A stretch of DNA of 16,967 nt from an uncultured Deinococcales bacterium (GTDB taxonomy: Bacteria > Deinococcota > Deinococci > Deinococcales > JAAFIG01), in assembly GCA_964247135.1 (NCBI GenBank), contig CAXTTL010000096.1, positions 1 through 16,967 of the forward strand, written 5' to 3'. The notes beneath the pieces are model-generated. The model ran no database searches and was not told the origin of the DNA. It saw nothing but the letters and a program-made list of their open reading frames with translations. The position numbers and the translations under genes are program-made. Positions 415-16,967 of the stretch are shown piece after piece (within the stretch, counting starts at the first letter, position 1; the number at the start of each line of letters is the position of its first letter).

Positions 415-488
415 TTTACTCTCCTCGATCTTAAGGTCTTCCGAACTTCTCGAGAATACCAAGTTTCTCGAGCTTCAAACATGTGATC

Positions 489-519
489 AAAAAATTGGGA
501 GTGCAATTTGCACTCCCAA
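489..519 (-). terminator. Rho-independent terminator of the marR-MFS unit
   Basis: Perfect inverted repeat TTGGGAGTGCAA-T-TTGCACTCCCAA (495-519), followed on the minus strand by a T run (A6 at 489-494), 21 bp after the MFS stop. Confidence 0.85.
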
Positions 520-540
520 CGTCAACTTAAGCTTGAGATT

Positions 541-2859
541 TTACTCTGCGGCTGGGGCGTGACGCGCACCTGCGCGAAGTGGGAGTTCTGGAATGAAAGC
601 GGTAATCAAGAGTGCAAGCAAGGCGATCAAGATGCCGAGTTTGTAAACGGTGGTGATGCCAGTCGTGAACGATTCCTTGATGGCGTCGCCGATGCTGTCC
701 ACGGCTGGAAGGGCTTTGGCTTTGGCGTCAGAAATGCCCGTTAAAGCCTTGTCGAGAATCGATTTTGTGGCGCTGGCTTGAGCCGTCTGCAAACCTTTGT
801 CCAAGCCCGCCAGTGCGCCCTGGGTGGCTTGCGCAATCGCGCCAGCTTGGGCGGCATCCATGCCCTTTTTGATGCCCGCAAGAATCCCAACTCGAGCGCC
901 TGGGTTGGCGAGGGCAGCCGCAGGGATGCTCGAGAGCTGCGCTTTGAGCGGCGCTGGCAGTTGCGGGTTGGCGAGCAAGGCTTTCATGGCTTCGGGTTTG
1001 CCAGAGTTGATGGCGGCGGCAATGGCATTGTACTGCGCGGCGAATCCTGCCTTGACGCTGGCGGCGATGCCACCGGCTTGCAAGGTTTTCTTGAGTTGCT
1101 CTGGGGCGTTAGGATTCTCGAGCACCGCCTTGATGGCGACTGGATCGTTGTCACGCAAGGCTTTGGTGAAGGTGACTTTTTGCGCGGCAAGCTGGTTTTT
1201 CAAGTAATTTTGGAAACCACCGGCGCTCACGGCGTCCTCGAGTTGTTTCTTCTGGTCGGCTGGGGTTTGAGGGCTGGCAGCCAGTTTTTTCAATGCCTCG
1301 AGGTCGTTGTTTTGAACGGCGGCGGTGAACAAATTGGCGCTTTCGTCCAGTTTGGCGCTGAGGTCGGCTTTGATTTTGGTCGCGTCAAAACCGTTGCTCG
1401 AGCTGCCTTCACCCGAAAATCCTCCGCCAGCGACACTAAATTGGCTTTGCATGGCGGCGGGCAGACTGGCTTTGATCGTGTCCATGCGCGGGGTGATATC
1501 GTTTGAGACGACGTTGGCAAAGACCGAACCGAGGATTGCCACGCCAATCGTGCTGCCCATTTGTCTGAAGAAGGTGGCACTGGCGGTGGCGACCCCAATT
1601 TTTTGGGGTTGTACGGCGTTTTGAATTGCCAGCGTGAACAGTGGAATGCTCGGTCCGAGTCCCAAGCCCATGACGACCATTTTGGCGACGACTTCCCAGA
1701 AGGTGCTGTGCGAGGTGAGTGTAAAACCAGTCAGCACAAAGCTGAGTACCATGATGACCAAACCGACCAGCATTAATGGTTTGTAACGCCCGAACCTCGA
1801 GACGAGTTGACCGCTGAGCACATTACCGATGACCAGACCAAAGACCAGTGGAATACCGGCAAAGCCGCTGCTGGTGGCACTGACCCCGACCACGCGCTGC
1901 ATGAACAAGGGCAAGAACACGAACGCACCGAGAAAGCCCATGCCAATCACAAAGGCGGCTAAGTTTCCAATGGCAAAGGTTGGAATTTTAAACAATGAAA
2001 GATCGAGCAGTGGATCATGCGCTGCACGTTCGGTGAAAATAAAGGCGATCAAACCAACCACCGACAGGGCAAACAAGCCAAGAATTTCTGTCGACCCCCA
2101 CAAGAAACCCAGTTGACCAGGAGCAACACTGGTTTTGCCCAAACTTAAGGCAAGCAGCAAAGGAATGACGGCGACAATCAGGGTTAAAGCGCCCAAATAA
2201 TCAATTTTAGGCTTTAAAACTGCCAAGTTTAAATTCGGCATTTTGCTGATAATAAAAGTCAATGCCAGAGCACCAACTGGAACGTTGACGTAAAAAATCG
2301 ATTGCCAAGAAACATTATCGGTCAAAAAGCCGCCGACCAATGGACCGACCACGCTCGAGAGTCCAAAGACCGCGCCGAACAAACCGCTGTACTTGCCGCG
2401 ATCTTGGGCTGGAATAATATCGGCAATGATGGCTAAGGCACTGGTAAACAGCGATGCCGAACCCAAACCTTGAAGGGCGCGGGCGATGATCAAAAATTCG
2501 GCGGTGTTCGAGAGTCCGCACAGCACCGAACCGAGCAAGAAAATGCTGATGCCGATCAAAAGAATCGGTTTGCGTCCGTACAAATCTGAAAGTTTGCCCC
2601 AAATCGGCACAAAGACGGTACTGGAAACCAGGTAAGCGGTGGTAATCCAGGAATAGAGCGAGTTGTCAATGTTCAAGACCCGTTGGATGGTTGGTGCGGC
2701 GGTGGCGACGATGGTTTGGTCGAGGGCTGCCAGCAGAACGCCCAAAAAAGCACCAATCAGCGTGAAATTGATTTGCTGTTGGGTCAATTTTGGTACGGCT
2801 GGGGCGTTGTACGCCATGCCTGGTGGTGCGCCTTCGGGTCGGGATGATGGTGATGCCAT
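541..2859 (-). CDS. DHA2 (EmrB/QacA, 14-TMS) MFS drug-efflux transporter with a large extracytoplasmic insertion before the last TMS
   Basis: LAALDQTIVATAAP, WITTAY, motif A GKLSDLYGRK, ARALQGLG, GPLVGGFLTD, RQMGSTIGVAILG. Start moved to ATG 2859, which has an AAAGGAG RBS, instead of TTG 2952. Confidence 0.93.
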   Translation of the reverse strand: MASPSSRPEGAPPGMAYNAPAVPKLTQQQINFTLIGAFLGVLLAALDQTIVATAAPTIQRVLNIDNSLYSWITTAYLVSSTVFVPIWGKLSDLYGRKPILLIGISIFLLGSVLCGLSNTAEFLIIARALQGLGSASLFTSALAIIADIIPAQDRGKYSGLFGAVFGLSSVVGPLVGGFLTDNVSWQSIFYVNVPVGALALTFIISKMPNLNLAVLKPKIDYLGALTLIVAVIPLLLALSLGKTSVAPGQLGFLWGSTEILGLFALSVVGLIAFIFTERAAHDPLLDLSLFKIPTFAIGNLAAFVIGMGFLGAFVFLPLFMQRVVGVSATSSGFAGIPLVFGLVIGNVLSGQLVSRFGRYKPLMLVGLVIMVLSFVLTGFTLTSHSTFWEVVAKMVVMGLGLGPSIPLFTLAIQNAVQPQKIGVATASATFFRQMGSTIGVAILGSVFANVVSNDITPRMDTIKASLPAAMQSQFSVAGGGFSGEGSSSNGFDATKIKADLSAKLDESANLFTAAVQNNDLEALKKLAASPQTPADQKKQLEDAVSAGGFQNYLKNQLAAQKVTFTKALRDNDPVAIKAVLENPNAPEQLKKTLQAGGIAASVKAGFAAQYNAIAAAINSGKPEAMKALLANPQLPAPLKAQLSSIPAAALANPGARVGILAGIKKGMDAAQAGAIAQATQGALAGLDKGLQTAQASATKSILDKALTGISDAKAKALPAVDSIGDAIKESFTTGITTVYKLGILIALLALLITAFIPELPLRAGARHAPAAE

Positions 2860-2970
2860 GTTTGTGCTCCTTTCAAGCCGAATCTCGGCACTAGCGGGCG
2901 AGGTGATTGTGACGCAAAACGTGTGAACAGTGCATGAAGCTCGAGACGCCAACCTGATGTTTCTCGAGGG

Positions 2971-3450
2971 TTAAGAATTGATTTCGTTTGTTTCGCTCAT
3001 GGTGTTGGCGAGATGAACCAAAGTGTCAATAAAGGCTTTGACTTGCTCTTGGGGCAGACTCACCAGACCACGTTCGACCAGGCGAGCCATCGTGCTGCGT
3101 GTGGCGTTTAAAACCTCAAAACCTTTTTGGGTAATCTCGAGCTTAACGCGTCTGGAATCTTCGGTGTCGAGGCTGCGCCTGACAAGATCGCGTTTGGTCA
3201 GGTTTTCGAGCATCCTCGAGATTCCGCTGGGTGAAATGCTGGTACGTTCGCAAAGTAAGCCTGGGTAATTTGCGCCGCGATCAATGGTGTTGAGCGCCAT
3301 AAAATCGCCAAAATCCATCTGATGTTCGCGCTCGAGGATTGGTGCGACGTTGCGTTTCATGACTTGACCAAATGTCCACCACGCATCCATCACGTCGCTT
3401 GATGGCGTGTCTGAAAGGTCTTTGGAGGATTTTTCGAGTAATGATTTCAC
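2971..3450 (-). CDS. MarR family transcriptional regulator
   Basis: wHTH ISPSGISRMLENLTKRDLVRR and the DxR motif (EDSRRVKLEITQKG). Directly upstream of the MFS gene. Start probably GTG 3450, because the track's TTG 3489 is the -35 box. Confidence 0.88.
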   Translation of the reverse strand: MKSLLEKSSKDLSDTPSSDVMDAWWTFGQVMKRNVAPILEREHQMDFGDFMALNTIDRGANYPGLLCERTSISPSGISRMLENLTKRDLVRRSLDTEDSRRVKLEITQKGFEVLNATRSTMARLVERGLVSLPQEQVKAFIDTLVHLANTMSETNEINS

Positions 3451-3458
3451 AACGAGAT

Positions 3459-3489
3459 AATTTATACCTGAAATAGTTTCAGTTTGCAA
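3459..3489 (-). promoter_or_regulatory. sigma70-type promoter of marR-MFS with a palindromic operator in the spacer
   Basis: TTGCAA (3489-3484), 17 nt, TATAAA/TAAATT (3466-3459). Inverted repeat CTGAAA-tag-TTTCAG at 3468-3482 lies between the boxes. Confidence 0.7.
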
Positions 3490-3534
3490 GTATCTCGAGG
3501 TGAAACCATTGGCTTAAGCCAGATGGCTTAGCGT

Positions 3535-4680
3535 TCAAACTTTAGGTTTCGCAATCCCGCCCCACAACTCGAGCAATTGCGTCACGGTTTTTGAATTCTG
3601 GGCATTGATCTCCAAAACCCGAGGAATGTCGGGTTCAGGATCATCTAGGGTTTTGGGTAGCGCCTCGCTCGAGTGAGGCTGCCACTGGGTCAACCAGGCT
3701 TTGGGAAGTTGAAACGGCAATTCTTGAGCGCTTAAGGCGGCGTACAAACTGCCCCAAACCCTCGGCACAGCCGTCCAGGTGGCATACCCACCGCCGCCCG
3801 TCGCCACCATTCGCCCTCCCGTAAAACGGTCGCTGTACTGCACAATTCGTTTGAACATTTCCTGATACCCAGGCACGGTCAGTGCCAAATCCGCCAGCGG
3901 ATCAAAAAAATGCGCGTCCGCACCCGCCTGCAAGACCAGCACATCGGGTTTGAAGCAAGCCAAAACAGGCTCGAGCACACGGTCCAACGCCTCCAAGAAA
4001 CTGACGTTTTGCGTGTAAGGCTCGAGCGGAATGTTGAGGCTGGCGCCAAGACCCTCATTTCGCCCAAGTTCGTAAATAAAACCCGTGCCTGGGTACAAAT
4101 AACGCCCAGTCTCGTGAAAAGAGATGGTGAGGACGTTCGGGTCATCGTAATGAATCCATTGCACGCCGTCGCCGTGATGCGCGTCGATGTCCAGATACGC
4201 CACCCGCAAACCTTGGGTTCGCAAATACGAAATCGCCACACTGAGATCGTTGTACACGCAAAAACCGCCACCTTTGTCGCTTTGCGCGTGATGCAAACCG
4301 CCAGCCAGGCTTAAGGCTCGAGTGTACCGACCACTTGCCACCAGTTCTGCCGCCAGCAGGGTGCCGCCCACCACCAGACTGGTCGCCTCGTGCATCCCAG
4401 CAAAAATTGGGGTGTCCGACGTGCCAATGCCGTACTCGAGGCAGTCAGGAACATCCTCGCCCCTGGACGCCCGCATGACCCTCGAGAGATACTTTTTGCT
4501 GTGAACAGCCGACAATGCCTCAAGACCCGCCATTTCAGGCTCAAAGACATTGCTGGCAGCCAGCAAACCCGAATGCTCGAGCAAACTTTTCACGGCTTGG
4601 GGACGAATTGCTTTAAACGGATGATGTTGCCCCAGATCGTAACGCAACTCCGCGCTCGAGAAGACAAAAGCCGTGTTCAT
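3535..4680 (-). CDS. acuC: Acetoin utilization protein AcuC (Zn-dependent HDAC-family lysine deacetylase)
   Basis: HPFK, GGLHHA, GFCVYND, YLDIDAHHGDGVQ, SFHETG..YPGTG, GADAH..DPLA, GGGGY. ATGA overlap with acuA. Confidence 0.93.
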   Translation of the reverse strand: MNTAFVFSSAELRYDLGQHHPFKAIRPQAVKSLLEHSGLLAASNVFEPEMAGLEALSAVHSKKYLSRVMRASRGEDVPDCLEYGIGTSDTPIFAGMHEATSLVVGGTLLAAELVASGRYTRALSLAGGLHHAQSDKGGGFCVYNDLSVAISYLRTQGLRVAYLDIDAHHGDGVQWIHYDDPNVLTISFHETGRYLYPGTGFIYELGRNEGLGASLNIPLEPYTQNVSFLEALDRVLEPVLACFKPDVLVLQAGADAHFFDPLADLALTVPGYQEMFKRIVQYSDRFTGGRMVATGGGGYATWTAVPRVWGSLYAALSAQELPFQLPKAWLTQWQPHSSEALPKTLDDPEPDIPRVLEINAQNSKTVTQLLELWGGIAKPKV

Positions 4681-5276
4681 TTGACCCCCAAAAACCGCAA
4701 ACGCTCGAATTCTGCGATCAGTTCGGGCGAAGCCCTCGGTCCAATTCGTGCCATCAAACTGTTGCCAGGAAAATCCAACTCTGGGTCATCGGTCTTAAAG
4801 ACCCTCATGCCAACACCAGTGTAAAGGCGCTCAAGCAATTTGCGGTAGGCATAGGTGCTCAAAGCTGTCCCCTCGAGGTCAAAATGCCAATAATAAATTG
4901 TGGCAATCACAATTTTATCCTCAAAACGCCCAGTGTTAAACGCCACCTCGAGCAAATGCCGCGCCAAATGCCGCCCACGGTGCAACTTCGAGGTTTCCAC
5001 CGCGCCCAACTCGAGCAAGCCAGGGACACCCGAGCCGCTCCAACGCTCGATCTCATCGGGCGGATGAAAGGTCGCATAACCCACCAGACGATGCCCCAAC
5101 CGCGCAAAACACACGCAAGCCAAACGATCCTGCGCAATCTCAAGTAACGCCTCGAACTGACGGTCGGGGGTACGAAAAACGTTCAAACTTGCATCCATCT
5201 CGAGCGTCCTTAAAAGTGCAGGATCGCCGCAAGGGAAGAGTTCGATTGGACCATACGGGCTGGAGAGGGTGCGCAT
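4677..5276 (-). CDS. acuA: AcuA-type GNAT lysine acetyltransferase
   Basis: FRTPDRQFEALLEIA, VGYATFHPPDEIERW, LLELGAVE, EDKIVIATIYYWHFDL, TDDPE and LMARIG match the AcuA pattern. Translationally coupled to acuC. Confidence 0.88.
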   Translation of the reverse strand: MRTLSSPYGPIELFPCGDPALLRTLEMDASLNVFRTPDRQFEALLEIAQDRLACVCFARLGHRLVGYATFHPPDEIERWSGSGVPGLLELGAVETSKLHRGRHLARHLLEVAFNTGRFEDKIVIATIYYWHFDLEGTALSTYAYRKLLERLYTGVGMRVFKTDDPELDFPGNSLMARIGPRASPELIAEFERLRFLGVK

Positions 5277-5309
5277 TGAAGTCCTGGATTCTTAGCAATT
5301 GCGTGGTCT

Positions 5310-5473
5310 ACCCTCATCCCCGATCCTTCTTGGTTTCAAGACGCACCTTCGAGCGAAACCGCTTCTCCCAACATCAGGAGAAGGGAGATTAGGTTTTTTA
5401 CACGTGTGGATCGAGGGATTTGTCCTTCTCCTGCTGGCGGAAGAAGGTGGCGAGGTACGAGCCGGATGAGGGT
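5310..5473. repeat. Composite palindromic intergenic repeat (REP/BoxC-like, CCTTCTCC...GGAGAAGG type)
   Basis: Terminal inverted repeats ACCCTCATCC (5310-5319) / GGATGAGGGT (5464-5473). Internal hairpins CTTCTCC...GGAGAAG and CCTTCTCC...GGAAGAAGG. 18/20 identity with the reverse complement of 7749-7768. Confidence 0.7.
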
Positions 5474-5478
5474 GGAGC

Positions 5479-6108
5479 TTACTGCGCATCCAAGACATCA
5501 ATTCCGCTCGAGCGCAGGCGTTCCGCCGCCGTTTCTGAACCTTCGCCAGTGACACGAAGCACGACTTGACGGCGACCATCGGCTAATCCTGCGGTGGCAA
5601 GGCTGGCAATATTGCTGGGTTTGATGGCTTCGGTGGTTTTCTCGAGCGCCCCTGGTACGTCGGGCAGGTCGATGGTCAGGCGCACGCCGCCCTCTTTTAA
5701 ACCGAGCACTTGAATCAACGCCCCCAAGACATCGGTGATGGTCAGGATTCCGACCAGTGCGCCAGCGTTATCCAGCACGGGCAAACCGGCGACCTTATGG
5801 GCTTGCATCTCGAGGGCGGCATTTTCGAGCGTGTCATCGCTGGTGGTGGTGCGCACGGGATGCGCCATGACTTCTTTGACGGTCAGTTTGGAGAGTAAGT
5901 AATTCATTTCCCAGACCGAAAGCGTGGTGGCTTTGGAGGGCATGGCGTCTTTGAGGTCTTTATCGGTGACGATGCCGACCAGTTTTGCGCCGTCCACCAC
6001 GGGCAAACGCCTGAATTTGTGTTCACGCAAGAGCCTTAATGCCTCGAGCACTGGTTTGTCCTGGGCTACGGTGAGGGGTGCGGGTGTCATCCAGTCTTTA
6101 ACGAGCAT
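5479..6108 (-). CDS. acuB: AcuB-type tandem CBS + ACT domain protein
   Basis: [56 protein letters not shown]-like DVPGAL. GGAGG RBS. Confidence 0.9.
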
Positions 6109-6315
6109 TTTGAAGCCTCCGAAAAGATATTTTACGTCTTTTTGAGCGCAAAGTTTAGTTTTCCTTCATTCACGTTTTTAACACCGCCCTCACGCTCATG
6201 AGAAAGCCTGTGTTACATTTTGCCATGTAGAGGAATCCGAACAACGGAAAACCGACCCTCGAGTTACACCAAGCGCCCGCGAATTTAAAACCGTGTGCTT
6301 TTGAAAGGAAAAACC

Positions 6316-6807
6316 ATGTTGAAAAAAATCATTCCCGTCCTGCTGGCAGTGGCTTTAACCGCCGCATTCACCTTACCCAACGCCCAGAGCAAAGCCACCA
6401 AAATTGGTTTTGTCAACGCCCAAAAAGTGCTCGAGTGCCACCCAGATGGCAAGAATATTATTGCACAACGCAAAAAAGCCGAAGACGAACTCAAGCCGAT
6501 TCAACAACAAATCCAAGCGCTTCAAGCCAAACTCCAACAGAACACCGCCACCGCCGCCGAACGCCAACAGTACGACGTGCTGGCAAAATCGTACCAAGCT
6601 CGAGCCAAGCAACTCCAAGACAAATTTGATAAACTCCTCACGCCCGTCACCAAAGACGTTGACACCGCCGTTTCCAAGGTTGCCAAAGCCCAAGGTTACG
6701 TGATGGTCATGGATCGTCTGATCGCATCCTCGAGCGGTTTGGTCATTTACGCCGACCCAGAAGGCACGGACTTGACCGATGATGTTTGCGGTGAAGTCAA
6801 AAAGTAA
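6316..6807 (+). CDS. skp: OmpH/Skp periplasmic chaperone
   Basis: Signal peptide, KIGFVNAQKVL, Q-rich coiled coil, VAKAQGYVMVMD, DLTDDV. ATG 6316 has an AAAGGA RBS. Confidence 0.88.
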   Translation: MLKKIIPVLLAVALTAAFTLPNAQSKATKIGFVNAQKVLECHPDGKNIIAQRKKAEDELKPIQQQIQALQAKLQQNTATAAERQQYDVLAKSYQARAKQLQDKFDKLLTPVTKDVDTAVSKVAKAQGYVMVMDRLIASSSGLVIYADPEGTDLTDDVCGEVKK

Positions 6808-6830
6808 AGGTTCTGTTCTCAAGCGTCCAG

Positions 6831-6859
6831 ACCTCCCCAGATTTCGGGGAGGTTTTTTT
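6831..6859 (+). terminator. Rho-independent terminator after skp
   Basis: ACCTCCCC-agatttc-GGGGAGGT followed by TTTTTT. Confidence 0.85.
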
Positions 6860-6881
6860 GTTAAGCCCGACTCAAACCCCG

Positions 6882-6887
6882 TAAGCT
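6882..6887 (+). promoter_or_regulatory. -10 box for a probably leaderless ccmA transcript
   Basis: TAAGCT (TAnnnT) lies 7 nt before the GTG start. No SD sequence. Located just after the skp terminator. Confidence 0.55.
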
Positions 6888-6894
6888 AGAAGTT

Positions 6895-7557
6895 GTGACC
6901 GATTCCCCCGCCCTCGAGCTGACCGGTTTGGTACACCGTTACGCACGGTCTTACGTTTTGCGCGGCGCAAACTTGCAATTAAGGCGCGGCGAAGTGCTGG
7001 CGCTTTACGGCAGCAACGGCGCGGGCAAAACCACGCTCCTCAAAATTATGGCAACCGCGCTCTCGCCGTCTCGAGGCACGGGCAAGATTCTGGGATTCGC
7101 GCTGAACGACCAGCAACGCATTCGCGGCAAGGTTTTGCTCGTCTCGCACGCGCTGGGCTTGTACCAAGAACTTTCAGGACTCGAGAATCTTGAATTCAGC
7201 GCCAAGATGAGCCTGAAAAATATTCCCAAAGCCAGCCTGCAAACCGCCCTCGAGCACGTCGGCATGGGCAACGTGACCGCCCGCGTTCGCGCCTACTCGA
7301 GCGGAATGCGCAAACGCCTGGCGCTCGCCAAAATGCTGATCCTCGAGCCAGAACTGGTGCTTTTGGATGAACCTTTCGCCGCGCTTGACCCTGAAGGCAA
7401 AAACCTGGTCGAAGAACTTTTAACCCTCGAGCGTCAACGCGGCACGACCCTGATTATTGCCAGCCACGAACCCGAACGCACCAGTAAAATCGCCAGCCTC
7501 GAGACGACACTGCAAAATGGGTTGTTAAGTGAACCCATCCTTCCGAGGCTCGCATGA
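6895..7557 (+). CDS. ccmA: Heme ABC exporter ATP-binding subunit CcmA
   Basis: Walker A GSNGAGKT, signature YSSGMRKRL, Walker B/D-loop LLDEPFAALD, H-loop SH. First gene of the ccm cluster. Confidence 0.92.
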   Translation: MTDSPALELTGLVHRYARSYVLRGANLQLRRGEVLALYGSNGAGKTTLLKIMATALSPSRGTGKILGFALNDQQRIRGKVLLVSHALGLYQELSGLENLEFSAKMSLKNIPKASLQTALEHVGMGNVTARVRAYSSGMRKRLALAKMLILEPELVLLDEPFAALDPEGKNLVEELLTLERQRGTTLIIASHEPERTSKIASLETTLQNGLLSEPILPRLA

Positions 7558-7572
7558 ATTTGTCACCACGCC

Positions 7573-7770
7573 ACTCTCACCCGACTTTTTACCCCTTACA
7601 GCAGCACCTTCGGGCTTGGGGCACTCGCTTAAAGCTCGTCACCCTCTCCCGAAAGCGGAAGAAGGTTCAAACGCCTCAAAACAATAATTTCTCGAGCCTC
7701 CATTGCCGCCACACCACACAGCACCAAAACTCCCTTCTCTCCTGGGAGAGAAGGGTCGGGGATGAGAGGA
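7573..7770. repeat. Composite palindromic intergenic repeat, same family as 5310-5473
   Basis: CCCTTCTCTCC-t-GGGAGAGAAGGG hairpin plus tcggggatgagag tail. CCCTCTCCC...GGAAGAAGG hairpin. Shares GCACCTTCG with the first copy. Confidence 0.65.
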
Positions 7771-7825
7771 GACGAATAATTACCTTGTGTGTAACCACGA
7801 AAAATGTCTCTTTCCTCGCAACGCA

Positions 7826-7850
7826 GGGTGAACACAAGGTTCACCCCTAC
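7826..7850 (-). repeat. GTAG-family REP element
   Basis: Minus strand reads GTAG-GGGTGAAC-cttgt-GTTCACCC: a GTAG tetranucleotide followed by a perfect 8-bp stem. Confidence 0.75.
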
Positions 7851-7882
7851 AAAATCTTTAAACCATCGCTCGGGGCTAGCGC

Positions 7883-8560
7883 ATGAACCCGTGGCACGTG
7901 ATCCTGACCATTGCAGCCAAAGATTGGCGTATCGAAGGTCGTGCTCGAGATGTCCTGACCGCCACGATTTTCTTTGCGGGTTTGGTGGTCATGATTTTGG
8001 CGTTCGCCTTTGGTCCCGAAACCATTCGTTTGCGTCAGGCTGCACCTGGGGTGCTCTGGGTGGCGATTGCCTTTGCCAGCATTTTGGCGGCGTCCAGGGC
8101 GTTCGCCTCGGAGGCGGAGGACGGGGCGCTCGAGGCGTTGTTGTTGTACCCAGTGCCGCACGAGTTGATTTACTTGGGGAAGTTATTATCGAACATTGGG
8201 TTGATGTTGATGCTGGCGTTGTTGGTCGTGCCATTAACGGTGCTTTTGTATGACGTAAAAGTGGGCGAGAACCTGCCATTGTTGCTGCTGACCGTGTTTT
8301 TGGGCGTGATCGGTTTTTCGATCATTTCGACCTTTCAAAGTTCCCTGACCGTCAACCTTCGCGCTCGAGAGTCGTTGTTGCCAGTCTTAATTTTCCCGTT
8401 GGTGGTGCCTGTGGTGATCGGCGCGGTCAAAGCCACCACCTTGATCGTGACCAATGGCTCTGGCATCGAAATCTGGGGTTGGCTTAGACTGTTGATTGGT
8501 TTTAACGTTGTTTACGTCACGGTTTGCACCTTGGTGTTTCCGTTCGCGGTCGAATCTTAA
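7883..8560 (+). CDS. ccmB: Heme exporter permease CcmB
   Basis: KDWRIEGR, APGVLWV, EAEDGALEALLL, IYLGK, RESLLPVLIFPLVVPV. About 6 TMS. Confidence 0.92.
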   Translation: MNPWHVILTIAAKDWRIEGRARDVLTATIFFAGLVVMILAFAFGPETIRLRQAAPGVLWVAIAFASILAASRAFASEAEDGALEALLLYPVPHELIYLGKLLSNIGLMLMLALLVVPLTVLLYDVKVGENLPLLLLTVFLGVIGFSIISTFQSSLTVNLRARESLLPVLIFPLVVPVVIGAVKATTLIVTNGSGIEIWGWLRLLIGFNVVYVTVCTLVFPFAVES

Positions 8561-8717
8561 GTTCGTTCAGGTTTTGGTCAGGCGGTCATGGCAAACTCGA
8601 GTTTGGGACAATCTTCATCCCCTAAGTTTGGGGTGTGTTTTTCATCTTGAAGGCGCACAATAGAACCAAAGCTTTCTCTCGAGCGTACACTGGTCAGAAG
8701 TAAGACGGAGGGTATTT

Positions 8718-9449: not shown

Positions 9450-9586
9450 CCCCCGCCGACATTGTCGCCGCGCACAAGTGGGATATTTTTGTCTACTGGG
9501 CGTATGGTGCGGCAGTGTTGTTGTTGGGCGGTTACGCTTTTTACTTGATTCGCCTGATGCGCCAACTGAAAAAGGACACGCCATGA
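9446..9586 (+). CDS. ccmD: Heme exporter protein CcmD (46 aa, not in the ORF track)
   Basis: MTPADIVAAHKWDIFVYWAYGAAVLLLGGYAFYLIRLMRQLKKDTP: FV.wAYG motif, one TMS, basic tail. ATGA overlaps with both the ccmC stop and the ccmE start. Confidence 0.85.
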   Translation: MTPADIVAAHKWDIFVYWAYGAAVLLLGGYAFYLIRLMRQLKKDTP

Positions 9587-10035: not shown

Positions 10036-10038
10036 AAC

Positions 10039-12009
10039 ATGAATAACTCGAGTTTGGGTGAATTTTCAATTTTGATCGCGTTGGTCTTTTGCATCTGGGG
10101 CTTTGTGAATTCCGCCCTCGGCGGCTCGAGGCGCGATTTGAGGTTGGCGGAGGTTGGACGCCGCGCCGCCATCCCAACGTTTTTGTTCGCCACCTTTGCT
10201 TTAATTGTGCTCGAGGTGGCGTTATTAACCAACGACACCAGCGTCAACTACGTGGCAAACCACTCCGCAAGCACCTCGCCGCTCTGGGTCAAGATTGTTT
10301 CACTTTGGGGCGCACTGGCGGGCAGTATTCTGCTCTGGGCGTGGTTGCTCTCTGGTTTCTTGCTGCTCGTCTCGAGAATCGCCAAAAACGATGCGTTACG
10401 TCCTTATGCGCTCGCCACGATGTTCGCGGTTTTAACGTTTTTCTTGGGCGTGAACGCCACCGTCGGCAGTCCGTTTCTCGAGGTTCCATTGCCGCCGCTC
10501 GATGGCAACGGTCCAAATGCGCTCTTGCAAAACCACTGGATGATGGCGGTTCACCCAGTTTTGATGTACATCGGTTTTGTCGGCTTGAGCGTGCCGTTCG
10601 CTTACGCCGTCGCCGCCATGCTGACGGGGCGCTTGGGCGAAACCTGGCTGGTGCAAACCCGCCGTTGGAGCATCGTCGCCTGGGCTTTCCTGTCTGCCGC
10701 AATCGTGGCTGGCGGTTGGTGGTCTTACGAGGTGCTCGGTTGGGGCGGGTACTGGGCGTGGGACCCCGTCGAAAACGCCAGCATTCTGCCCTGGTTTTTC
10801 ACGACTGCCTATTTGCACAGCCTGCAAATTCAGGAACGCCGCCGCATCCTCAAAGGTTGGAATCTGGGCTTGATCGTCGCTGCGTTCTCGAGCACCGTCT
10901 TTGGCACATTTTTAACCCGTTCGGGCATCGTCCAAAGCGTTCACAGTTTTTCCAAAAGCCCGATTGGACCCGTTTTTCTGGGTTTCTTCGCCCTCATGCT
11001 CGCCATCACGCTTTATATTGCCTACAAACGCCTGTCCCTGGTTCGTGACGATCACAGCCTCGACAGCCCACTCTCGAGGGAGGGCGCGTTTCTGGCTGGA
11101 AATTTATTGTTCTCGAGTTTTGCCTTTACGGTCGTTCTCGGCACCATGTTTCCCGTGTTTTACGAGGCGTTCACCAACAAAACCACCTCGGTTGGCGCAC
11201 CATTTTTCAATCAGGTCGGCATTCCGATTGGGCTTGCCATTCTTGGTTTGATGGCGGTTGGACCAGCACTCACCTGGCGGCGACTCGAGGGTGTGGCACT
11301 GCGCAAAACCCTGACGATACCTGGCATTTTGGCTGTGCTGACCAGCGTCATCGCATTTGTGCTGTGGATTCGAGACATCAACGTTTTGTTAACCCTGGCA
11401 TTCTCGAGCCTTGCCGTAAGTGTGCTTTTTGTGGTGACAGGCAACGCGGTGCGTCAACGCAAGCAAGCAGAGGGTGGCTCGAGCCTGAAGGCACTGAGCG
11501 ATCTCTTGAACGCCTACCCACGGCGTTACGGCGCGTACATCACGCATTTTGGCGTGGTCGTGATTGCCCTTGGCATTGCGTTTTCGGGCGCGTACAAAAC
11601 CGAGCGCGAACTGGCGTTCAAACCAGGCGAACTGAAAACCGTACTCGGACACGAGGTTCGGTATTACAGTCTGGTTGGTGACCAGCGCCCCGAAAAAACC
11701 ATTCAAGCCGCCAAACTCGAGGTGGACGGCAAAGAATTTTATCCAGCGCAAAATTATTACGGCACACAACGCGAGGCGGTGGCGACGCCAGCCATTCAGT
11801 ACAAGGTAAGTGGTGATTTTTACATGGTGTTGGTGAATGGTGATCCCAAAGATCAAAGCGTCAGCTTAAAGTTTATCTCGAGTCCTCTGGTCAGTTGGAT
11901 TTGGGTCGGAGGGTTAATTGTGGTGATTGGCGCGGCGCTGACCTTGATTCCAGCGATTGTGACCGAACCGAAGACGGTCTCCTCCAACGTGGCGGCGGCA
12001 AGCGATTAA
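10039..12009 (+). CDS. ccmF: Cytochrome c heme lyase CcmF
   Basis: YVANHS, GSILLW, GPNALLQ..MAVHP, WSYEVLGWGGYWAWDPVENAS, GTFLTRSG..SVHSF, SREG, PLVSWIW. Confidence 0.97.
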   Translation: MNNSSLGEFSILIALVFCIWGFVNSALGGSRRDLRLAEVGRRAAIPTFLFATFALIVLEVALLTNDTSVNYVANHSASTSPLWVKIVSLWGALAGSILLWAWLLSGFLLLVSRIAKNDALRPYALATMFAVLTFFLGVNATVGSPFLEVPLPPLDGNGPNALLQNHWMMAVHPVLMYIGFVGLSVPFAYAVAAMLTGRLGETWLVQTRRWSIVAWAFLSAAIVAGGWWSYEVLGWGGYWAWDPVENASILPWFFTTAYLHSLQIQERRRILKGWNLGLIVAAFSSTVFGTFLTRSGIVQSVHSFSKSPIGPVFLGFFALMLAITLYIAYKRLSLVRDDHSLDSPLSREGAFLAGNLLFSSFAFTVVLGTMFPVFYEAFTNKTTSVGAPFFNQVGIPIGLAILGLMAVGPALTWRRLEGVALRKTLTIPGILAVLTSVIAFVLWIRDINVLLTLAFSSLAVSVLFVVTGNAVRQRKQAEGGSSLKALSDLLNAYPRRYGAYITHFGVVVIALGIAFSGAYKTERELAFKPGELKTVLGHEVRYYSLVGDQRPEKTIQAAKLEVDGKEFYPAQNYYGTQREAVATPAIQYKVSGDFYMVLVNGDPKDQSVSLKFISSPLVSWIWVGGLIVVIGAALTLIPAIVTEPKTVSSNVAAASD

Positions 12010-12090
12010 ACAAATCTCGAGTCAAAATCCTTAGAACTCAACTTCAATACCCTGAAAATTTTTCCTTACAACCTCAAGAAGCCGTCAATG

Positions 12091-12116
12091 AGGGGCGCAG
12101 CAAGCAGCGCCCCTAC
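12091..12116 (-). repeat. GTAG-family REP element
   Basis: Minus strand reads GTAGGGGCGC-tgcttgct-GCGCCCCT. Same architecture and orientation as 7826-7850. Confidence 0.75.
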
Positions 12117-12159
12117 AAATACCAAAAAAGATTATTTTGAATTAATCTCGAGGTAAACC

Positions 12160-12714
12160 ATGCAAAATCCAACACCAAAATCAAATCCGATTCAAAGATT
12201 TGTCGTGCCAATCGTCTTGCTGGCTTTTGTTGCCGCGCTCGGGTATGGCTTGACCAAACCCGCCGCCGTCAACACCAGTTCGCTCGAAGGCAAACCCGCG
12301 CCCGATTTCACGCTCAAGACGCTCGAGGGCACAAACTTGACGCTCTCGAGTTTCAGGGGTCGCCCCGTGGTCGTGAACTTCTTTGCCTCCTGGTGCGGAC
12401 CTTGCGTGGACGAAGCGCCGATGCTCTCTCAGGCGGCAATTGATGCGGCAGCCAAGAAAACCGTGTTCTTGGGTGTGGCGTACAGCGACAAAGCCCCGCT
12501 CGCCAAAGGATTTCGCGACAAGTACAATCTGGGTTTTGCGGTCGTGATGGACGATGACAAACTCGAGGCTGGTCGCTCGAGCGTCAAATACGCGATCACT
12601 GGCGTTCCCGAAACCTTTTTCATTGACGCCGGCGGCATTGTGGTGAAAGCCGTGACCGGACCACTCGATGCCAATTCTTTGCAGGCAGGCTTGAAAGGCA
12701 TCGGCGCAATCTAA
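12160..12714 (+). CDS. ccmG: Membrane-anchored thiol:disulfide oxidoreductase CcmG/TlpA
   Basis: TM anchor, GKPAPDFTL, VVNFFASWCGPC, GVPETFFID. Located between ccmF and ccmH. Confidence 0.9.
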   Translation: MQNPTPKSNPIQRFVVPIVLLAFVAALGYGLTKPAAVNTSSLEGKPAPDFTLKTLEGTNLTLSSFRGRPVVVNFFASWCGPCVDEAPMLSQAAIDAAAKKTVFLGVAYSDKAPLAKGFRDKYNLGFAVVMDDDKLEAGRSSVKYAITGVPETFFIDAGGIVVKAVTGPLDANSLQAGLKGIGAI

Positions 12715-13151
12715 TGCGGCTTGTCTCGAGTCTTTTGCTTTTACTTTTGACGGGTTTTGCCCTGGCGCAAAACGCTGCCGAGGACGCTCGAGTGCAAGCG
12801 CTGGGCAAGCAAATTCGTTGCCCGATCTGTCAGGGTTTGAGTATCACCGAAAGCTCGAGCGACTTTGCGCGGTCGATGCTGAACGAACTGAGAGACCGCA
12901 TCAAACAAGGGCAAACCGACGAAACGATCCGCGATTATTTTGTCTCCAAGTACGGGCGCGTGGTCTTGCTCGAGCCTCCAAAAAGCGGTTCGGATTTGAT
13001 CGTTTGGGGTGCGCCACTGGTGATCTTGTTTGGTGGGGCGATTGGTTTATTCTCATACTTGCGTCGCGCCAGCAGCCAAATTATGCCCGAAGTACGCGGC
13101 ACCTCGCTCGAGAAAGTCCGGCAGCAACTCGAGGAAAGCAAGAATTCGTGA
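12714..13151 (+). CDS. ccmH: Cytochrome c biogenesis protein CcmH (CcmL-type)
   Basis: Signal peptide, IRCPICQGLSITES, IRDYFVSKYG..VLLEPP, C-terminal TMS. TAATG overlap with ccmG. Confidence 0.93.
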   Translation: MRLVSSLLLLLLTGFALAQNAAEDARVQALGKQIRCPICQGLSITESSSDFARSMLNELRDRIKQGQTDETIRDYFVSKYGRVVLLEPPKSGSDLIVWGAPLVILFGGAIGLFSYLRRASSQIMPEVRGTSLEKVRQQLEESKNS

Positions 13152-13206
13152 GTTCTGACTCGAGAGGCGGGAATTTATTTTAGGCATCATTTTTGGGATT
13201 TTAGGC

Positions 13207-14277
13207 GTGTTGGTCGCCCTCGGTTTGGTGTTTTACGCGGTTTGTCCAATCGTCAAAAGTTCGGCGGAGAATGGCGCAACCGATAACGCACGCGTTGAAC
13301 TGGAAGACGAGCGCGACGCATTATTCAAGCAAATCAAAGAACTCGAGCGGGATCACACGCTTGGACTGATCGACGACACCGATTACCCACGTTTGCGCCT
13401 TCGAGACGAAACCCGTGCCGCGTTGATCCTCGAGAAACTTGAGGATTTGGCGCCCGCCCCAGTTCAAACCGGCAAACGAGCACCGTTGTCCTTCGTGCTG
13501 GGTTCTCTGGCGGGGCTGGCATTGGCTGGAGCGCTGGCGAACGTCTTTGTTGTCCCGAGTTTGGAGCGTCTGGCATTGTCCAGACAGGAAGCCCAAGATT
13601 ACGAAAGTGCTGCCAAACTCAAATCACTCGAGGCTGTCTTGAACGCTCAAGCCAAAGCCGGTAAAGCTGAAGTTGCAACCTTGCTCGAGTACGGGCAACT
13701 GGCTTGGGAAATTCAAGATTACAGCCGTGCCGCCAACGCTTACGGCGAGGTGCTGCGGCAAGAACCCAAGAGTGTCACCGCCTTGGCGCGTTATGGACAA
13801 ATTTTGTTTTTTGCCAGTGCGCAAGACCCAAAATTGCTCGATCAAGCGCTTGCATTGTTACGCGCCGCCACCAAACTAACGCCACCCTCGAGCGAGGCTT
13901 GGATGACCATTGGCAACATTTTGTTCAGTTCCAAAAATGACCCGCAAGGCGCACTGAACGCTTGGACCCAGTACCAAAAAATCACGGGAGACACGGGCAG
14001 TCCACGCATCACGCAACTCATGAGCGCCGCCAGAAAACGCTTGAACGCCACCGACCCAGCCGTGAAGGTCTTCGCGGCAAATTGCGCCGCCTGTCACGGC
14101 AGCGAAGCCACAGGGCAGATCGGACCGAATTTAAGAACTTCCGTTAACGCTCGAGATGCCGCATTCGTCGAACATCAAATCAAGTTCGGCTCGAAAAACA
14201 AGAAAATGCCAGCGCTGGCACAACTCTCGAGCGCAGACATCGGCTTGCTGGTGAAGTACGTGACCGCATTGCCTTAA
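13207..14277 (+). CDS. CcmI/CycH-like TPR protein fused to a C-terminal class I cytochrome c domain (start uncertain)
   Basis: TMS, CcmI-like IKELERDHTLGLIDDTDY, second TMS, TPR-like helices (YSRAANAYGEVL, ALARYGQIL, AWMTIGNIL), then FAANCAACHG...IGPNL...KKMPA (CxxCH plus distal Met). Confidence 0.8.
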   Translation: MLVALGLVFYAVCPIVKSSAENGATDNARVELEDERDALFKQIKELERDHTLGLIDDTDYPRLRLRDETRAALILEKLEDLAPAPVQTGKRAPLSFVLGSLAGLALAGALANVFVVPSLERLALSRQEAQDYESAAKLKSLEAVLNAQAKAGKAEVATLLEYGQLAWEIQDYSRAANAYGEVLRQEPKSVTALARYGQILFFASAQDPKLLDQALALLRAATKLTPPSSEAWMTIGNILFSSKNDPQGALNAWTQYQKITGDTGSPRITQLMSAARKRLNATDPAVKVFAANCAACHGSEATGQIGPNLRTSVNARDAAFVEHQIKFGSKNKKMPALAQLSSADIGLLVKYVTALP

Positions 14278-14286
14278 ACTAAACGC

Positions 14287-14871
14287 ATGGCAGACATCGA
14301 ACCCACAACAATCTCCAGACGCAAGCTGCTCGAACTCTGGTGGATTGCCCCAGTGCTCGCGGCTGGCGGTTTTTTTGCCTGGTTTGGCATTCGTTCCTAC
14401 CGCATTCTGCTGGGCAAAACCGCTCCAGGCACACCAAATTTCCAAACGGGCGATAAATACAGGATTGCTCGGGTAACTGATCTAAAAAAACCAGGTGAAG
14501 CCAAAACTTTCGATTACCCTGTCAAAATCGGCTCGAGCACCCAAGCCTTACCTGCCATTCTGATTCGGGTGTCCAAACCACAACCAGGCGGGTTAAGCCA
14601 AGGCAGCAGGCATTTTATTGCCCTCTCGAGAGTCTGCACCCATCAAAACTGCACTTGCGATTTCATTGTCAAGCCCGAAATCGCGTCGATGGCGTACAAA
14701 TACCGTCCACCCGAGGGAACACCGATTCTTGGTTGCGCCTGTCACTTCAGCGCCTTCGATCCCGAAAAAGCAGGGGAAAGCGTTTCCGGACCCGCCCTGA
14801 AACCCCTGCCGCGATTGCAACTCGAGCTTCAAAACAATGATGTTTTCGCGGTTGGACTCGAGAAAACCTAG
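14287..14871 (+). CDS. Rieske 2Fe-2S protein with a Tat-like membrane anchor
   Basis: SRRKLL followed by a hydrophobic helix. Box I CTHQNC, box II CACHFSAF, GPALKPL. Confidence 0.88.
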   Translation: MADIEPTTISRRKLLELWWIAPVLAAGGFFAWFGIRSYRILLGKTAPGTPNFQTGDKYRIARVTDLKKPGEAKTFDYPVKIGSSTQALPAILIRVSKPQPGGLSQGSRHFIALSRVCTHQNCTCDFIVKPEIASMAYKYRPPEGTPILGCACHFSAFDPEKAGESVSGPALKPLPRLQLELQNNDVFAVGLEKT

Positions 14872-14882
14872 GCGCAAAAATC

Positions 14883-15046
14883 TGTTTGACTCGACTGGCT
14901 GTCAACTGGAATCGCAGCTTGGTTGCAACAGCTTTACAGCGGTTTGCATATCCGTTGACGCGCTCCGCGCGCTCACTTCTATGCAAACCGCTGTCTATTG
15001 CTACTCCCTTTGGTCGCCAATGTTTGACGCTTCGCGTCAAACATTG
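14883..15046. repeat. Cluster of long perfect hairpins (REP/MITE-like element or structured RNA)
   Basis: ACAGCGGTTTGCATA (14936-14950) / TATGCAAACCGCTGT (14980-14994). CAATGTTTGACGC-ttc-GCGTCAAACATTG (15018-15046). TGTTTGAC is repeated at 14883 and 15021. Confidence 0.6.
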
Positions 15047-15151
15047 TGCAAGGTGCTATAAACGCAATCTCGAGCGTGTTCGTGCTCAATCTGTCAGGCT
15101 TGAAACTCAAGCAAGTATTGAACCCGTCCGACACGACTCGAGTGCATATTA

Positions 15152-15180
15152 TTGACGAATAACGAATAACGTGCTACACT
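15152..15180 (+). promoter_or_regulatory. Near-consensus sigma70 promoter
   Basis: TTGACG (15152-15157), 17 nt, TACACT (15175-15180), with an extended -10 TG at 15172-15173. Confidence 0.7.
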
Positions 15181-15297
15181 ATACAAATCAACGGCGAAGA
15201 GCCGTGTTTTTTATTTTATGGCACTTTAAATTTGGCTCGAGTTTCAAACGTAAGACCATTCACTCGAGATTCACACTGCAAATGCCAGAATGCAGTC

Positions 15298-16593
15298 ATG
15301 AAAACCGTTGCAGATTTGCCACGTCCAGTCTTTCCTGAAGATTACCCAACTCGAGTGGGACAATTTTTGGCAGAATGCTACGAACAACACGGTCCAATTT
15401 TTGCCCGCGACATTGACGGGCGCGAACTGGTGTACTTGGTCGGACCCGAGGCAAACCGTTTTGTGCTGCTCGAGAATCGGGCGGCGTTCTCGCACGATCT
15501 GGGTTGGACGCCAATTATGGGCGAAATCATGGGCAAGGGTTTATTGAACATGGACGGCGCACCACACGACGCGCAACGCAAAATGATGAACCCAGCGTTT
15601 ACCCAAGATTACATGGACAGGTACTTGCCGATCATGAACCGCGTGATTGACCGTTATGTCTCGAGCTGGCTTGAACAAGGCACGGTCAATGTCTACGAAG
15701 AAGCCCGCAAGATCACTTTTGATGTGGCAGCCGAAGCGCTGGTGGGCTTCTCTGACCAAGCTGAAATTGACGAGTTCAGGCGCTTGTTCACGGTGCTTTT
15801 GATGGGCAATGGTGAGGACACCACCCAAGAACAAGCCTTCCAAACCGCCATGAACACCAAAGAAACGCTGTCAAAAATGCTGCTCGAGCAAATCGAACAA
15901 CGCCGCCAAAAACCTACCGATGACGTGCTTGGCATGTTGGTTCGCGCTCGAGATGGGGCGGGCAATGCGCTTTCTGACGAGCAATTGCTGGGGCATACCA
16001 ACATTTTGCTGGTCGCTGGTCATGAAACCAGCACCAGCCTAAGCGCCTGGCTGTTGTGTCTGCTGGCGCAAAACCCCGAGTACACCGCCAGAATCCGAGC
16101 CGAACTGACGGCTGTACTGGGCGACAAAGACCCGCACCTCGAGGGGGTCAAGCAGTTGAAGGTCTTGGGATATGCGCTTTCCGAAGCCGAGCGTTTGTAC
16201 CCACCTGTGGCAAACGCACCTCGAGGCACGGTACAAGATTTTGAATTTAACGGCTTCCATATTCCCGCAGGCACAAGAATGATTTACTCGATTGCTGCCA
16301 GCCACCAGTTGCCACACATCTGGCAGAACCCCGCCAGCTTTGACCCAGACCGTTTTGCACCACCTCGAGAGGAAGACAAAAAGCATCAGTTTGCCCTGGT
16401 GGGATTTGGCGGTGGACCGAGGGTTTGTATTGGCATCAACTTTGCCACCGTCGAAATGAAAGCCATGATCGCCCAGATTTTACGGCGTTTTGACCTTGCG
16501 CTTGAGCCAGGATTTAAACCCTATCAAGTTTATTTTGGTGCGACTGGAATGCCGTTTGGTGGGATTCAATTGAGGGTTAGTGCTCGAGCCTAA
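15298..16593 (+). CDS. Cytochrome P450
   Basis: I-helix AGHETS, ExxR (EAERLYPP), FDPDRF, heme motif FGGGPRVCIG. ATG 15298 preferred over TTG 15232. Confidence 0.95.
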   Translation: MKTVADLPRPVFPEDYPTRVGQFLAECYEQHGPIFARDIDGRELVYLVGPEANRFVLLENRAAFSHDLGWTPIMGEIMGKGLLNMDGAPHDAQRKMMNPAFTQDYMDRYLPIMNRVIDRYVSSWLEQGTVNVYEEARKITFDVAAEALVGFSDQAEIDEFRRLFTVLLMGNGEDTTQEQAFQTAMNTKETLSKMLLEQIEQRRQKPTDDVLGMLVRARDGAGNALSDEQLLGHTNILLVAGHETSTSLSAWLLCLLAQNPEYTARIRAELTAVLGDKDPHLEGVKQLKVLGYALSEAERLYPPVANAPRGTVQDFEFNGFHIPAGTRMIYSIAASHQLPHIWQNPASFDPDRFAPPREEDKKHQFALVGFGGGPRVCIGINFATVEMKAMIAQILRRFDLALEPGFKPYQVYFGATGMPFGGIQLRVSARA

Positions 16594-16633
16594 AGCGGTC
16601 ATCAAACACGATTGACCAAATTAATTTTTATTA

Positions 16634-16967
16634 TCAACCAATCCTCGATGCCCGTTCAGCCAGCAATGCGGCTTGGACACGATTGCGAACCTGAAGCTTT
16701 TGCAAGATGTTGGTCATGTAGCCCTTGACGGTGTTCTCGGTCAACTCGAGCCGAGCCGCGATTTCTTTGTTGCTGCGCCCTGCCGCGACCAACTCGAGAA
16801 TCGAATGCTCGCGTGGTGTTAAATCCTCGAGCAGACTGGCGCTTGTTTTGCTGGATGCCGAAGCCATTTCCGAGAGCACACCCGCCGCCAAACTGGGCGA
16901 GACAAAGACCTCACCGCGATGGACAGCTCGCACGATGCCACGCAATTCACGCCCAGTCACGCCCTTG
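16634..16967 (-). CDS. NarL/FixJ-family response regulator (C-terminal part; 5' end outside the window)
   Basis: End of the receiver domain (KGVTGRELRGIVRAVHRGE) plus a LuxR HTH, LTPREHSILELVAAGRSNKEIAARLELTENTVKGYMTNILQKL. Confidence 0.92.
   Translation of the reverse strand, partial: KGVTGRELRGIVRAVHRGEVFVSPSLAAGVLSEMASASSKTSASLLEDLTPREHSILELVAAGRSNKEIAARLELTENTVKGYMTNILQKLQVRNRVQAALLAERASRIG

Follow-up and report, generated by a model that had tools for sequence, protein, structure and literature searches.

Why should one six-base word recur about every 150 bp along a stretch of bacterial DNA, in genes and between them? The question is raised by a contig of 16,967 nucleotides from an uncultured Deinococcales bacterium (CAXTTL010000096.1 of assembly GCA_964247135.1; the whole stretch is hereafter called the window), in which the palindrome CTCGAG occurs exactly 110 times, the first copy starting at position 449 and the last occupying 16826-16831. 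In 200 dinucleotide-preserving shuffles of the window, the mean was 2.76 copies (standard deviation 1.68, maximum 9), and none of the 200 attained 110. The answer developed here is that CTCGAG is a motif of the highly iterated palindrome (HIP) class, with a new sequence and in a new phylum, and that it may serve as a mark on the DNA.

The window is contig C96 of a metagenome-assembled genome (MAG), designated G000, of 5,091,702 bases in 386 contigs, with 84% completeness and 52.7% GC. CTCGAG is the commonest hexamer of this genome, with 33,925 copies (6.66 per kb; 6,663 per Mb). At zero order the observed/expected ratio (O/E) is 24.8; Markov models of order 1, 2 and 3 give 35.2, 14.4 and 3.45, and at order 4 it falls to 1.24, the pentamer sub-words there already holding the excess. 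Words of 7 or 8 bases bring no further enrichment (O/E of 1.01 and 0.85 under an order-5 model), and the unit is therefore the hexamer. An extended motif was thus ruled out, also in view of weak flanking preferences, the strongest being G at -1 (39%) and A at -3 (37%). The tetramer TCGA occurs 54,610 times, of which 33,919 lie within CTCGAG. All 297 contigs of at least 5 kb hold 2.6-10.5 copies per kb, and merged 3-kb stretches with at most three copies number only three in the whole genome. The original prediction, made from the window alone, had put the enrichment above 20-fold and considered the flanks unconstrained; the first holds genome-wide and the second nearly so, and confinement of the motif to this contig is excluded.

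Within the window, the map of open reading frames (ORFs) places 97 copies in ORFs (frame 0, 48; frame 1, 16; frame 2, 33) and 13 outside. The features concerned are the following:

449-16831, strandless (palindromic): dispersed array of 110 CTCGAG sites, about one per 150 bp, a local sample of the 33,925 in the genome.
449-472, strandless: two CTCGAG 18 bp apart, outside ORFs, in the spacer downstream of the major facilitator superfamily (MFS) transporter gene.
2940: CTCGAG inside the MFS ORF (541-2952, minus strand).
2963-2968, strandless: CTCGAG in the short gap separating the MFS gene from ORF 2971-3489.
6913-6918, plus strand: frame-0 site of ccmA, CTC GAG, read as Leu-Glu.
7070-7075, plus strand: frame-1 site of ccmA, TCT CGA GGC, read as Ser-Arg-Gly.
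7296-7301, plus strand: frame-2 site of ccmA, TAC TCG AGC, read as Tyr-Ser-Ser.
10039-12009, plus strand: ccmF, the query gene for relatives, which bears CTCGAG like the remainder of the window.

The ccmA gene is identified by its match to PF00005. The hand count of about 110 sites and that of about 15 occurrences of CTCGA followed by A, C or T (5 + 2 + 8 = 15 on the plus strand) proved accurate, as did the readings Leu-Glu, Ser-Arg and Ser-Ser of the three ccmA sites. As for the roughly 16 intergenic sites announced, sites outside ORFs do exist, but they number 13, and the one at 2940 belongs to the MFS ORF.

The gene set used for G000 is a crude one, made with no gene caller and consisting of 3,669 non-overlapping longest ORFs of at least 150 amino acids (4.02 Mb). 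These ORFs contain 26,125 CTCGAG, or 6.52 per kb, versus 7.19 per kb outside ORFs. All three frames are used, with 16,120 copies read as CTC GAG (frame 0, 62%), 3,961 as xCT CGA Gxx and 6,044 as xxC TCG AGx. Shuffling synonymous codons within each gene, a null that retains the already inflated codon counts of that gene, gives about 3,600 copies, so that the real number is 7.3-fold higher; shuffling the codon order of the ORFs gives about 1,500. The enrichment thus persists under Markov and codon-aware nulls, and the view that codon or amino-acid usage is insufficient to explain it is borne out by the synonymous shuffle, by the comparable density inside and outside ORFs and by the use of all frames.

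The sites also show a short-range spacing pattern. Neighbours less than 18 bp apart are about twofold rarer than the geometric expectation, tandem copies are absent, and a spacing of 6, which would create GAGCTC, is never seen; beyond short range, only the coding period of 3 is detected. The close-range depletion is compatible with a footprint or with diminishing returns. A hairpin or terminator role for close pairs was rejected, as pairs under 18 bp are depleted and show no excess outside ORFs.

The enrichment extends to the whole family of the bacterium. The closest relatives of the CcmF protein come from two MAGs labelled Deinococcales bacterium (95% and 65% identity), followed by Deinococcus at about 50%, which bears out the placement in Deinococcota assumed in the original prediction. 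The orthologous loci of these two MAGs, L001 and L002, both of the family, have GC contents of 50% and 45% and CTCGAG densities of 5.8 and 6.7 per kb; for the other 78 loci the median density is 0.68 per kb. The genome collection contains 19 species-level genomes of the family, from five genera, of which 13 were counted and the other six left out. All 13, which span the five genera, hold 21,883-35,442 copies each, about 4.3-6.8 per kb. One of them, G011, belongs to another genus than G000 and consists of a single contig of 5.09 Mb, from which 476 kb were sampled. Its 24 stretches along the chromosome hold 3.2-5.6 copies per kb, and only one of the 428 sampled 3-kb windows has three copies or fewer. 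A binning bias in MAGs therefore does not explain the uniformity. An assembly or library artefact is excluded by the twelve further family genomes, by single-contig G011 and by orthologous sites standing amid ordinary substitutional divergence. The idea of a genome-wide, HIP-like system acting on DNA is therefore upheld, and the system is lineage-wide as well.

Outside the family, none of 150 other Deinococcota genomes exceeds 3.4 CTCGAG per kb. Deinococcus-like genomes are depleted, with 26 to about 1,000 copies per genome (some with 26-60), and Thermus-like genomes have about 0.9 per kb. The Meiothermus-like genera (G085, G114, G123, G052 and G074, and locus L068 of Meiothermus sp.) reach 2-3.4 per kb. 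Relative to the codon-aware null, the enrichment is 7.6-fold in G005 (same genus as G000), 4.9-fold in G011 and 9.1-fold at L002. It is about threefold in two Meiothermus-like samples, which are small (28 and 22 kb), 1.75-fold in G013 from a neighbouring family, and 0.3-fold at two Deinococcus loci. The trait thus reaches its extreme in one family, with graded strength in other parts of the phylum.

This abundance is found in genomes that purge most other palindromes. In G000, 28 of the 64 palindromic hexamers have an O/E below 0.1, versus 80 of 2,016 non-palindromic pairs, and the lowest-ranked of these pairs mostly contain GGCC or CTAG. The whole genome holds no GAGCTC, one GGGCCC, three CGGCCG, five CGTACG and seven GGATCC; in the window, both GAGCTC and GGCC are absent. 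Type II restriction-modification (R-M) systems of G000 comprise NgoPII-like (GGCC), Eco29kI-like (CCGCGG), PvuII-like (CAGCTG) and MvaI/BcnI-like systems, and a SacI-like one with a D12 methyltransferase (GAGCTC). They lie outside the window:

C14:36040-37936, C178, C36:19236-21060, C320:1061-2985 and C189: R-M pairs of G000.

The words avoided most match resident Type II systems, and the sites of resident nucleases are down to 0-15 copies. A SacI-like nuclease is encoded by 7 of the 19 family genomes; among the 12 counted besides G000, 10 have almost no GAGCTC. CTCGAG is therefore the single strongly favoured palindrome in genomes that remove most of the others. As a separate observation, positions 1-20000 of contig C1 of G000 have no match at E<=1e-100 in five same-genus genomes, yet this stretch carries 5.8 CTCGAG per kb and no GAGCTC, so that accessory DNA bears the family signature too.

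How the sites behave over evolutionary time was deduced from comparisons at several distances. Between G000 and G005 (289,863 aligned bases, 85.9% nucleotide identity, 2,059 CTCGAG sites), 81%, 63% and 76% of the sites in frames 0, 1 and 2 are unchanged, as are 73% of those outside ORFs, versus 42-46% of all other hexamers. By simple arithmetic from this comparison, the change per base is about 4% inside CTCGAG and about 12% outside. Alignment of the window with five same-genus genomes agrees, with 78-84% of CTCGAG kept versus 40-47% of other hexamers. The cleanest test is offered by matched synonymous positions, to which the conservation extends. Third-base identity between G000 and G005 is 0.89 for CTC before GAG and 0.56 otherwise, 0.91 for GAG after CTC and 0.67 otherwise, 0.87 for TCG within a site versus 0.70 elsewhere, and 0.80 versus 0.58 for CGA. 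Likewise, the fourfold-degenerate xxC preceding TCGAG is conserved at 0.90 versus 0.74 elsewhere. At a greater distance, in 110 ORF pairs of G000 and G011 (66% amino-acid identity), 16-25% of the G000 sites stand at the same aligned position, where less than 1% is expected by chance, and 143 of the 283 frame-0 sites of G011, about half, are common to G000. With the neighbouring family (13 pairs), essentially no positions are in common.

The sites arise via substitution, which is also how HIP1 of cyanobacteria spreads. Only 1.7-3.3% of frame-0 sites touch an alignment gap, and the residues opposite them are LD, LQ, VE, LA and others; 6-bp insertions leaving linker-like footprints were rejected on this ground. 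Gains and losses were polarised with six same-genus genomes over about 57 kb, namely the window and two further 20-kb stretches of G000. A site is present in at least one genome at 299 positions and in all covered genomes at 117. The 68 singleton absences are mostly single C-to-T or G-to-A changes, and polarised losses number 21 at position 3 (the CpG cytosine), 16 at position 1 and 5 at position 2. Site turnover is thus slow, and the losses show the usual transition bias with no marked hotspot at the CpG. In several cases an apparent gain takes three substitutions, such as TTCATC to CTCGAG at window position 11877; this, like the surplus of absences over the 30 singleton presences, may reflect slow decay, recombination with unsampled relatives or an alignment effect.

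Proteins are affected as well. In G000, Leu-Glu has an O/E of 2.38, the highest of all dipeptides, whereas that of Glu-Leu is 1.02. Leu-Glu is written as CTCGAG in 16,120 of 20,871 cases (77%), although CTC accounts for 25% of the codons used for Leu, and GAG for 46% of those used for Glu. Elsewhere, the O/E of Leu-Glu is 1.29 in G013, 0.87 and 1.25 at two Deinococcus loci and about 1.55 in Meiothermus-like samples. Among differences between G000 and G005, those making or breaking a site are nonsynonymous in 27-33% of cases, versus 18% for other differences. The force acts on DNA and drags the protein sequence along, and the case illustrates how far a DNA-level force can bend proteins.

These properties (a dominant palindrome, present in all frames and in non-coding DNA, not explained by codons, lineage-wide and conserved in position) are those of a HIP. 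HIP1 (GCGATCGC) is a cyanobacterial palindrome described as still unexplained in function by Elhai (2015) and by Xu et al. (2018). CTCGAG shares with it hyper-abundance throughout a lineage, occurrence in genes (all frames) and between them, and conservation beyond background. It differs in being a 6-mer of 67% GC with a TCGA instead of a GATC core, in belonging to a different phylum, and in its density of 6,663 per Mb, 2.5 to 20 times the 300-2,700 per Mb tabulated for HIP1 (Elhai 2015). HIPs have been proposed as a class, with GGCGCC of Calothrix PCC 7103 as an alternative hexameric member (Elhai 2015), which resembles CTCGAG as a hexameric palindrome that is the dominant over-represented word of its genome. 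According to the same source, such alternative HIPs are found in one or a few genomes, where they replace HIP1, have 75-100% GC and reach about 1,000-2,000 per Mb, whereas CTCGAG is family-wide (13 of 13 counted) and 3-6 times denser. Xu et al. (2018) further described a 10-90 kb periodicity in the chromosomal distribution of HIP1, an observation that supported a role of HIP1 in the nucleoid. No paper tying CTCGAG to iterated palindromes or to these taxa was found, subscription journals, REBASE and supplements being outside the scope of the search; on palindrome over-representation the search gave cyanobacterial HIP papers only, and on the Meiothermus methylome nothing relevant.

CTCGAG is also the recognition word of XhoI/PaeR7I R-M systems, but restriction depletes its own sites, as seen in G000 for GGCC, CCGCGG, CAGCTG and GAGCTC, whereas CTCGAG is enriched 25-fold. 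Other lineage-specific words that are enriched genome-wide and conserved are the DNA uptake sequences of Neisseriaceae and the uptake signal sequences of Pasteurellaceae, which are non-palindromic, 9-12 nt long, present at about 1 per kb and often paired in terminators, and which can spread by transformation-linked drive, a mode of action recently proposed for HIP1 too. CTCGAG differs from them by its 6 nt, its 6.7 copies per kb, its location mostly within genes and the depletion of its close pairs.

What, then, maintains the sites? The explanation tentatively favoured here, with slightly less than even confidence, is that CTCGAG is a functional mark read by a sequence-specific factor and kept under purifying constraint. 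The approximately 34,000 copies per genome were created by point substitutions wherever the sequence was already near-matching. They are now held by a DNA-level constraint, whether the DNA is coding, in any frame, or non-coding. This constraint is strong enough to make synonymous change about three times slower inside sites and to raise the Leu-Glu content of the proteome twofold. Abundance, distribution across the family, conservation of position, origin by substitution and the effect on proteins are shown directly; the rest is proposed. Each site would be the target of a sequence-specific trans-acting factor, and a site every 100-150 bp would bring a small benefit. Restriction systems abound in this lineage, and the benefit would most likely be to label own-lineage DNA for transformation or recombination; alternatively, it may lie in nucleoid organisation. 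The factor need not be a R-M system of XhoI type or a repair system of Vsr type, no genes having been found for either. Purifying constraint is favoured over continual neutral replenishment because positional conservation is strong and turnover slow, the argument from which selection was inferred for HIP1 by Xu, Lawrence and Durand (2018).

Several points weigh against this explanation. No reader protein, methyltransferase or uptake component was identified, and the functional step is one that we purely infer. Site-restoring repair or biased gene conversion equally yields positional conservation, and the data cannot separate it from selection. For 34,000 separate sites to be under selection, very small effects at each site would have to be visible to it. 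Moreover, the 68 singleton absences exceed the 30 singleton presences, the ancestral state being clean for only 8 of the latter, private sites number 482 in G000 versus 237 in G005, and the motif may be slowly decaying in part of the genus instead of being at equilibrium. Finally, the crude ORF calls leave short genes in the fraction counted as outside ORFs, where a period of 3 is visible.

For HIP1, a role in kin-DNA recognition during recombination or transformation was recently put forward. CTCGAG could be a convergent second invention of the HIP principle, in which lineages crowded with restriction systems turn one palindrome into a dense barcode of kin DNA, read during transformation or during recombination between genome copies, a conjecture that is rather doubtful. 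If it were true, HIP1 and CTCGAG would be two cases of one general mechanism for marking self-DNA, and the weaker excess in culturable Meiothermus-like genomes would make the barcode experimentally tractable. In any event, HIP1 has lacked an explanation for three decades and the HIPs that are well studied all belong to a single phylum, so that an independent and denser HIP with a different sequence in Deinococcota is a natural replicate. Any explanation, be it methylation, uptake, nucleoid structure or repair bias, must now fit both motifs, and gene families tracking both become strong candidates. The graded excess among Meiothermus-like genomes leads to organisms that can be cultured. On the practical side, CTCGAG dominates the k-mer signatures used for binning these MAGs.

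The best-surviving competitor of a functional mark is a neutral molecular drive, in which biased mismatch repair or gene conversion, acting between genome copies or on incoming kin DNA, favours CTCGAG with no benefit to the cell. Although unlikely, it accounts for much: the equal enrichment of coding and non-coding DNA and of all frames, the conservation of synonymous positions, the origin by substitution at near-cognate sequences, and the graded enrichment over the codon null (4.9-9.1-fold in the family, about 3-fold in Meiothermus-like samples, 1.75-fold in G013 and 0.3-fold in Deinococcus). The imposed amino-acid changes, too, look more drive-like than adaptive. A known precedent is CCWGG in E. 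coli, where the sequence-specific repair enzyme Vsr restores a methylated palindrome and shifts word frequencies, with an enrichment far below the approximately 25-fold of CTCGAG. However, the Vsr family (PF03852) was found in none of the 21 relatives searched, with positive controls found in E. coli, B. subtilis and Caulobacter. One-mismatch neighbours of CTCGAG are not depleted either, at 203-4,350 copies on both strands versus about 2,500-2,700 expected, and the transition neighbours are the commonest. Continual replenishment also predicts many young sites, whereas only 30 singleton presences stand beside 117 positions shared by all and 68 singleton absences, and the short-range repulsion between sites is not predicted by a drive. 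The methyl-directed repair evoked in the original prediction is disfavoured for the same lack of Vsr and by the weakness of any CpG deamination hotspot in the losses (21 at the CpG cytosine versus 16).

The other half of that prediction, an orphan methyltransferase (MTase) specific for CTCGAG or TCGA that marks the sites for creation or upkeep by methyl-directed processes, along the lines suggested for HIP1 with DmtA and DmtC, is improbable in the light of the enzymes found. Its appeal comes from cyanobacteria, in which, following Elhai (2015), every HIP-bearing genome encodes an MTase predicted to recognise its HIP. A CTCGAG-specific 5-methylcytosine methylation is known in Halorubrum. In contrast with HIP1 and its associated DmtA and DmtC, no cognate MTase common to all CTCGAG carriers was found. 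The survey covered five Pfam families (PF07669, PF01555, PF00145, PF02384 and PF02086) in 21 relatives or the 19 family genomes. Every family genome has several MTases, but no orthologue from these five Pfam families is common to all of them: G011 lacks PF01555 and G008 lacks PF00145. The D12 and N4/N6 candidates examined are patchy in distribution and mostly accompany restriction enzymes. Several unrelated sets can be distinguished among the D12 MTases. Set A is limited to genera g1 and g3, within which it tracks phylogeny but between which it is not syntenic, is missing from G008 and is replaced by unrelated enzymes in g4 and g5. Set B was rejected as the causative enzyme since it is paired with a nuclease matching RE_SacI. 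The assignable MTases of G000 go with NgoPII-, Eco29kI-, PvuII-, SacI- and MvaI/BcnI-type nucleases. An orphan-looking MTase of 349 amino acids beside alaS on contig C36 proved to have a partner of PvuII type; it is found in about 4 of the 19 family genomes, and was also discarded. Two unassigned R-M partner proteins gave no match in PDB.

In the five Pfam families, G011 has one C5 and two D12 MTases, a Type ISP enzyme and Type I systems. One of its D12-class MTases, located between a glycoside hydrolase and prfB, has no adjoining nuclease and counts in favour of an orphan enzyme. Separately, its only C5 MTase clusters with an ORC-CDC6-like ATPase and an HD-CE protein at about 4,979,800-4,983,700 of contig C1 (L156:5788-9684), and this cluster is a defence-like module. 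The XhoI endonuclease family (PF04555) was found in none of the 19 family genomes and none of five CTCGAG-poor Deinococcus-like genomes, in a search with no positive control anywhere, so that this negative carries little weight. Together with the lack of a marked CpG deamination signature in the losses, these results do not support a conserved orphan CTCGAG MTase. As the specificity of an MTase is not readable from its sequence and different enzymes could share one specificity, the model is weakened and not refuted.

It is very unlikely that the sites are a relic, left by a burst of site creation in the family ancestor under a system that was later lost, and now only decaying. Many sites are indeed older than the genus splits, singleton absences outnumber singleton presences, and the density varies among genera from 4.3 to 6.8 per kb. 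On the other hand, the sites change about three times more slowly than neighbouring synonymous or non-coding positions, which requires a present-day constraint, and the strain-specific 20-kb stretch of contig C1 is as rich in sites as the core genome. Almost no credence can be given to a protein or codon cause, that is, a preference for Leu-Glu or for the codons CTC, GAG, TCG and CGA: frame 0 does predominate among ORF sites and Leu-Glu is over-represented, but the idea is refuted by the 7.3-fold deficit left by the synonymous shuffle and by the 77% of Leu-Glu written as CTCGAG despite the modest shares of CTC and GAG, and it also meets a density at least as high outside ORFs and some 10,000 sites in frames 1 and 2.

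The genes of the window are ordinary, coding for an MFS transporter, a deacetylase, a GNAT protein, a CBS protein, cytochrome c maturation (ccm) proteins and a P450. None of them is a candidate causative gene, as had been anticipated. Three short dispersed repeats of about 130-200 bp lie between genes at 5292-5476, 7573-7772 and 14930-15066. They have 42, 52 and 9 blastn hits in G000, respectively, and many copies in the five same-genus genomes, and are thus of the kind of miniature inverted-repeat transposable elements or repetitive extragenic palindromes. The ORF at 7554-7886 (110 amino acids, between ccmA and ccmB) overlaps the second repeat and may be no gene.

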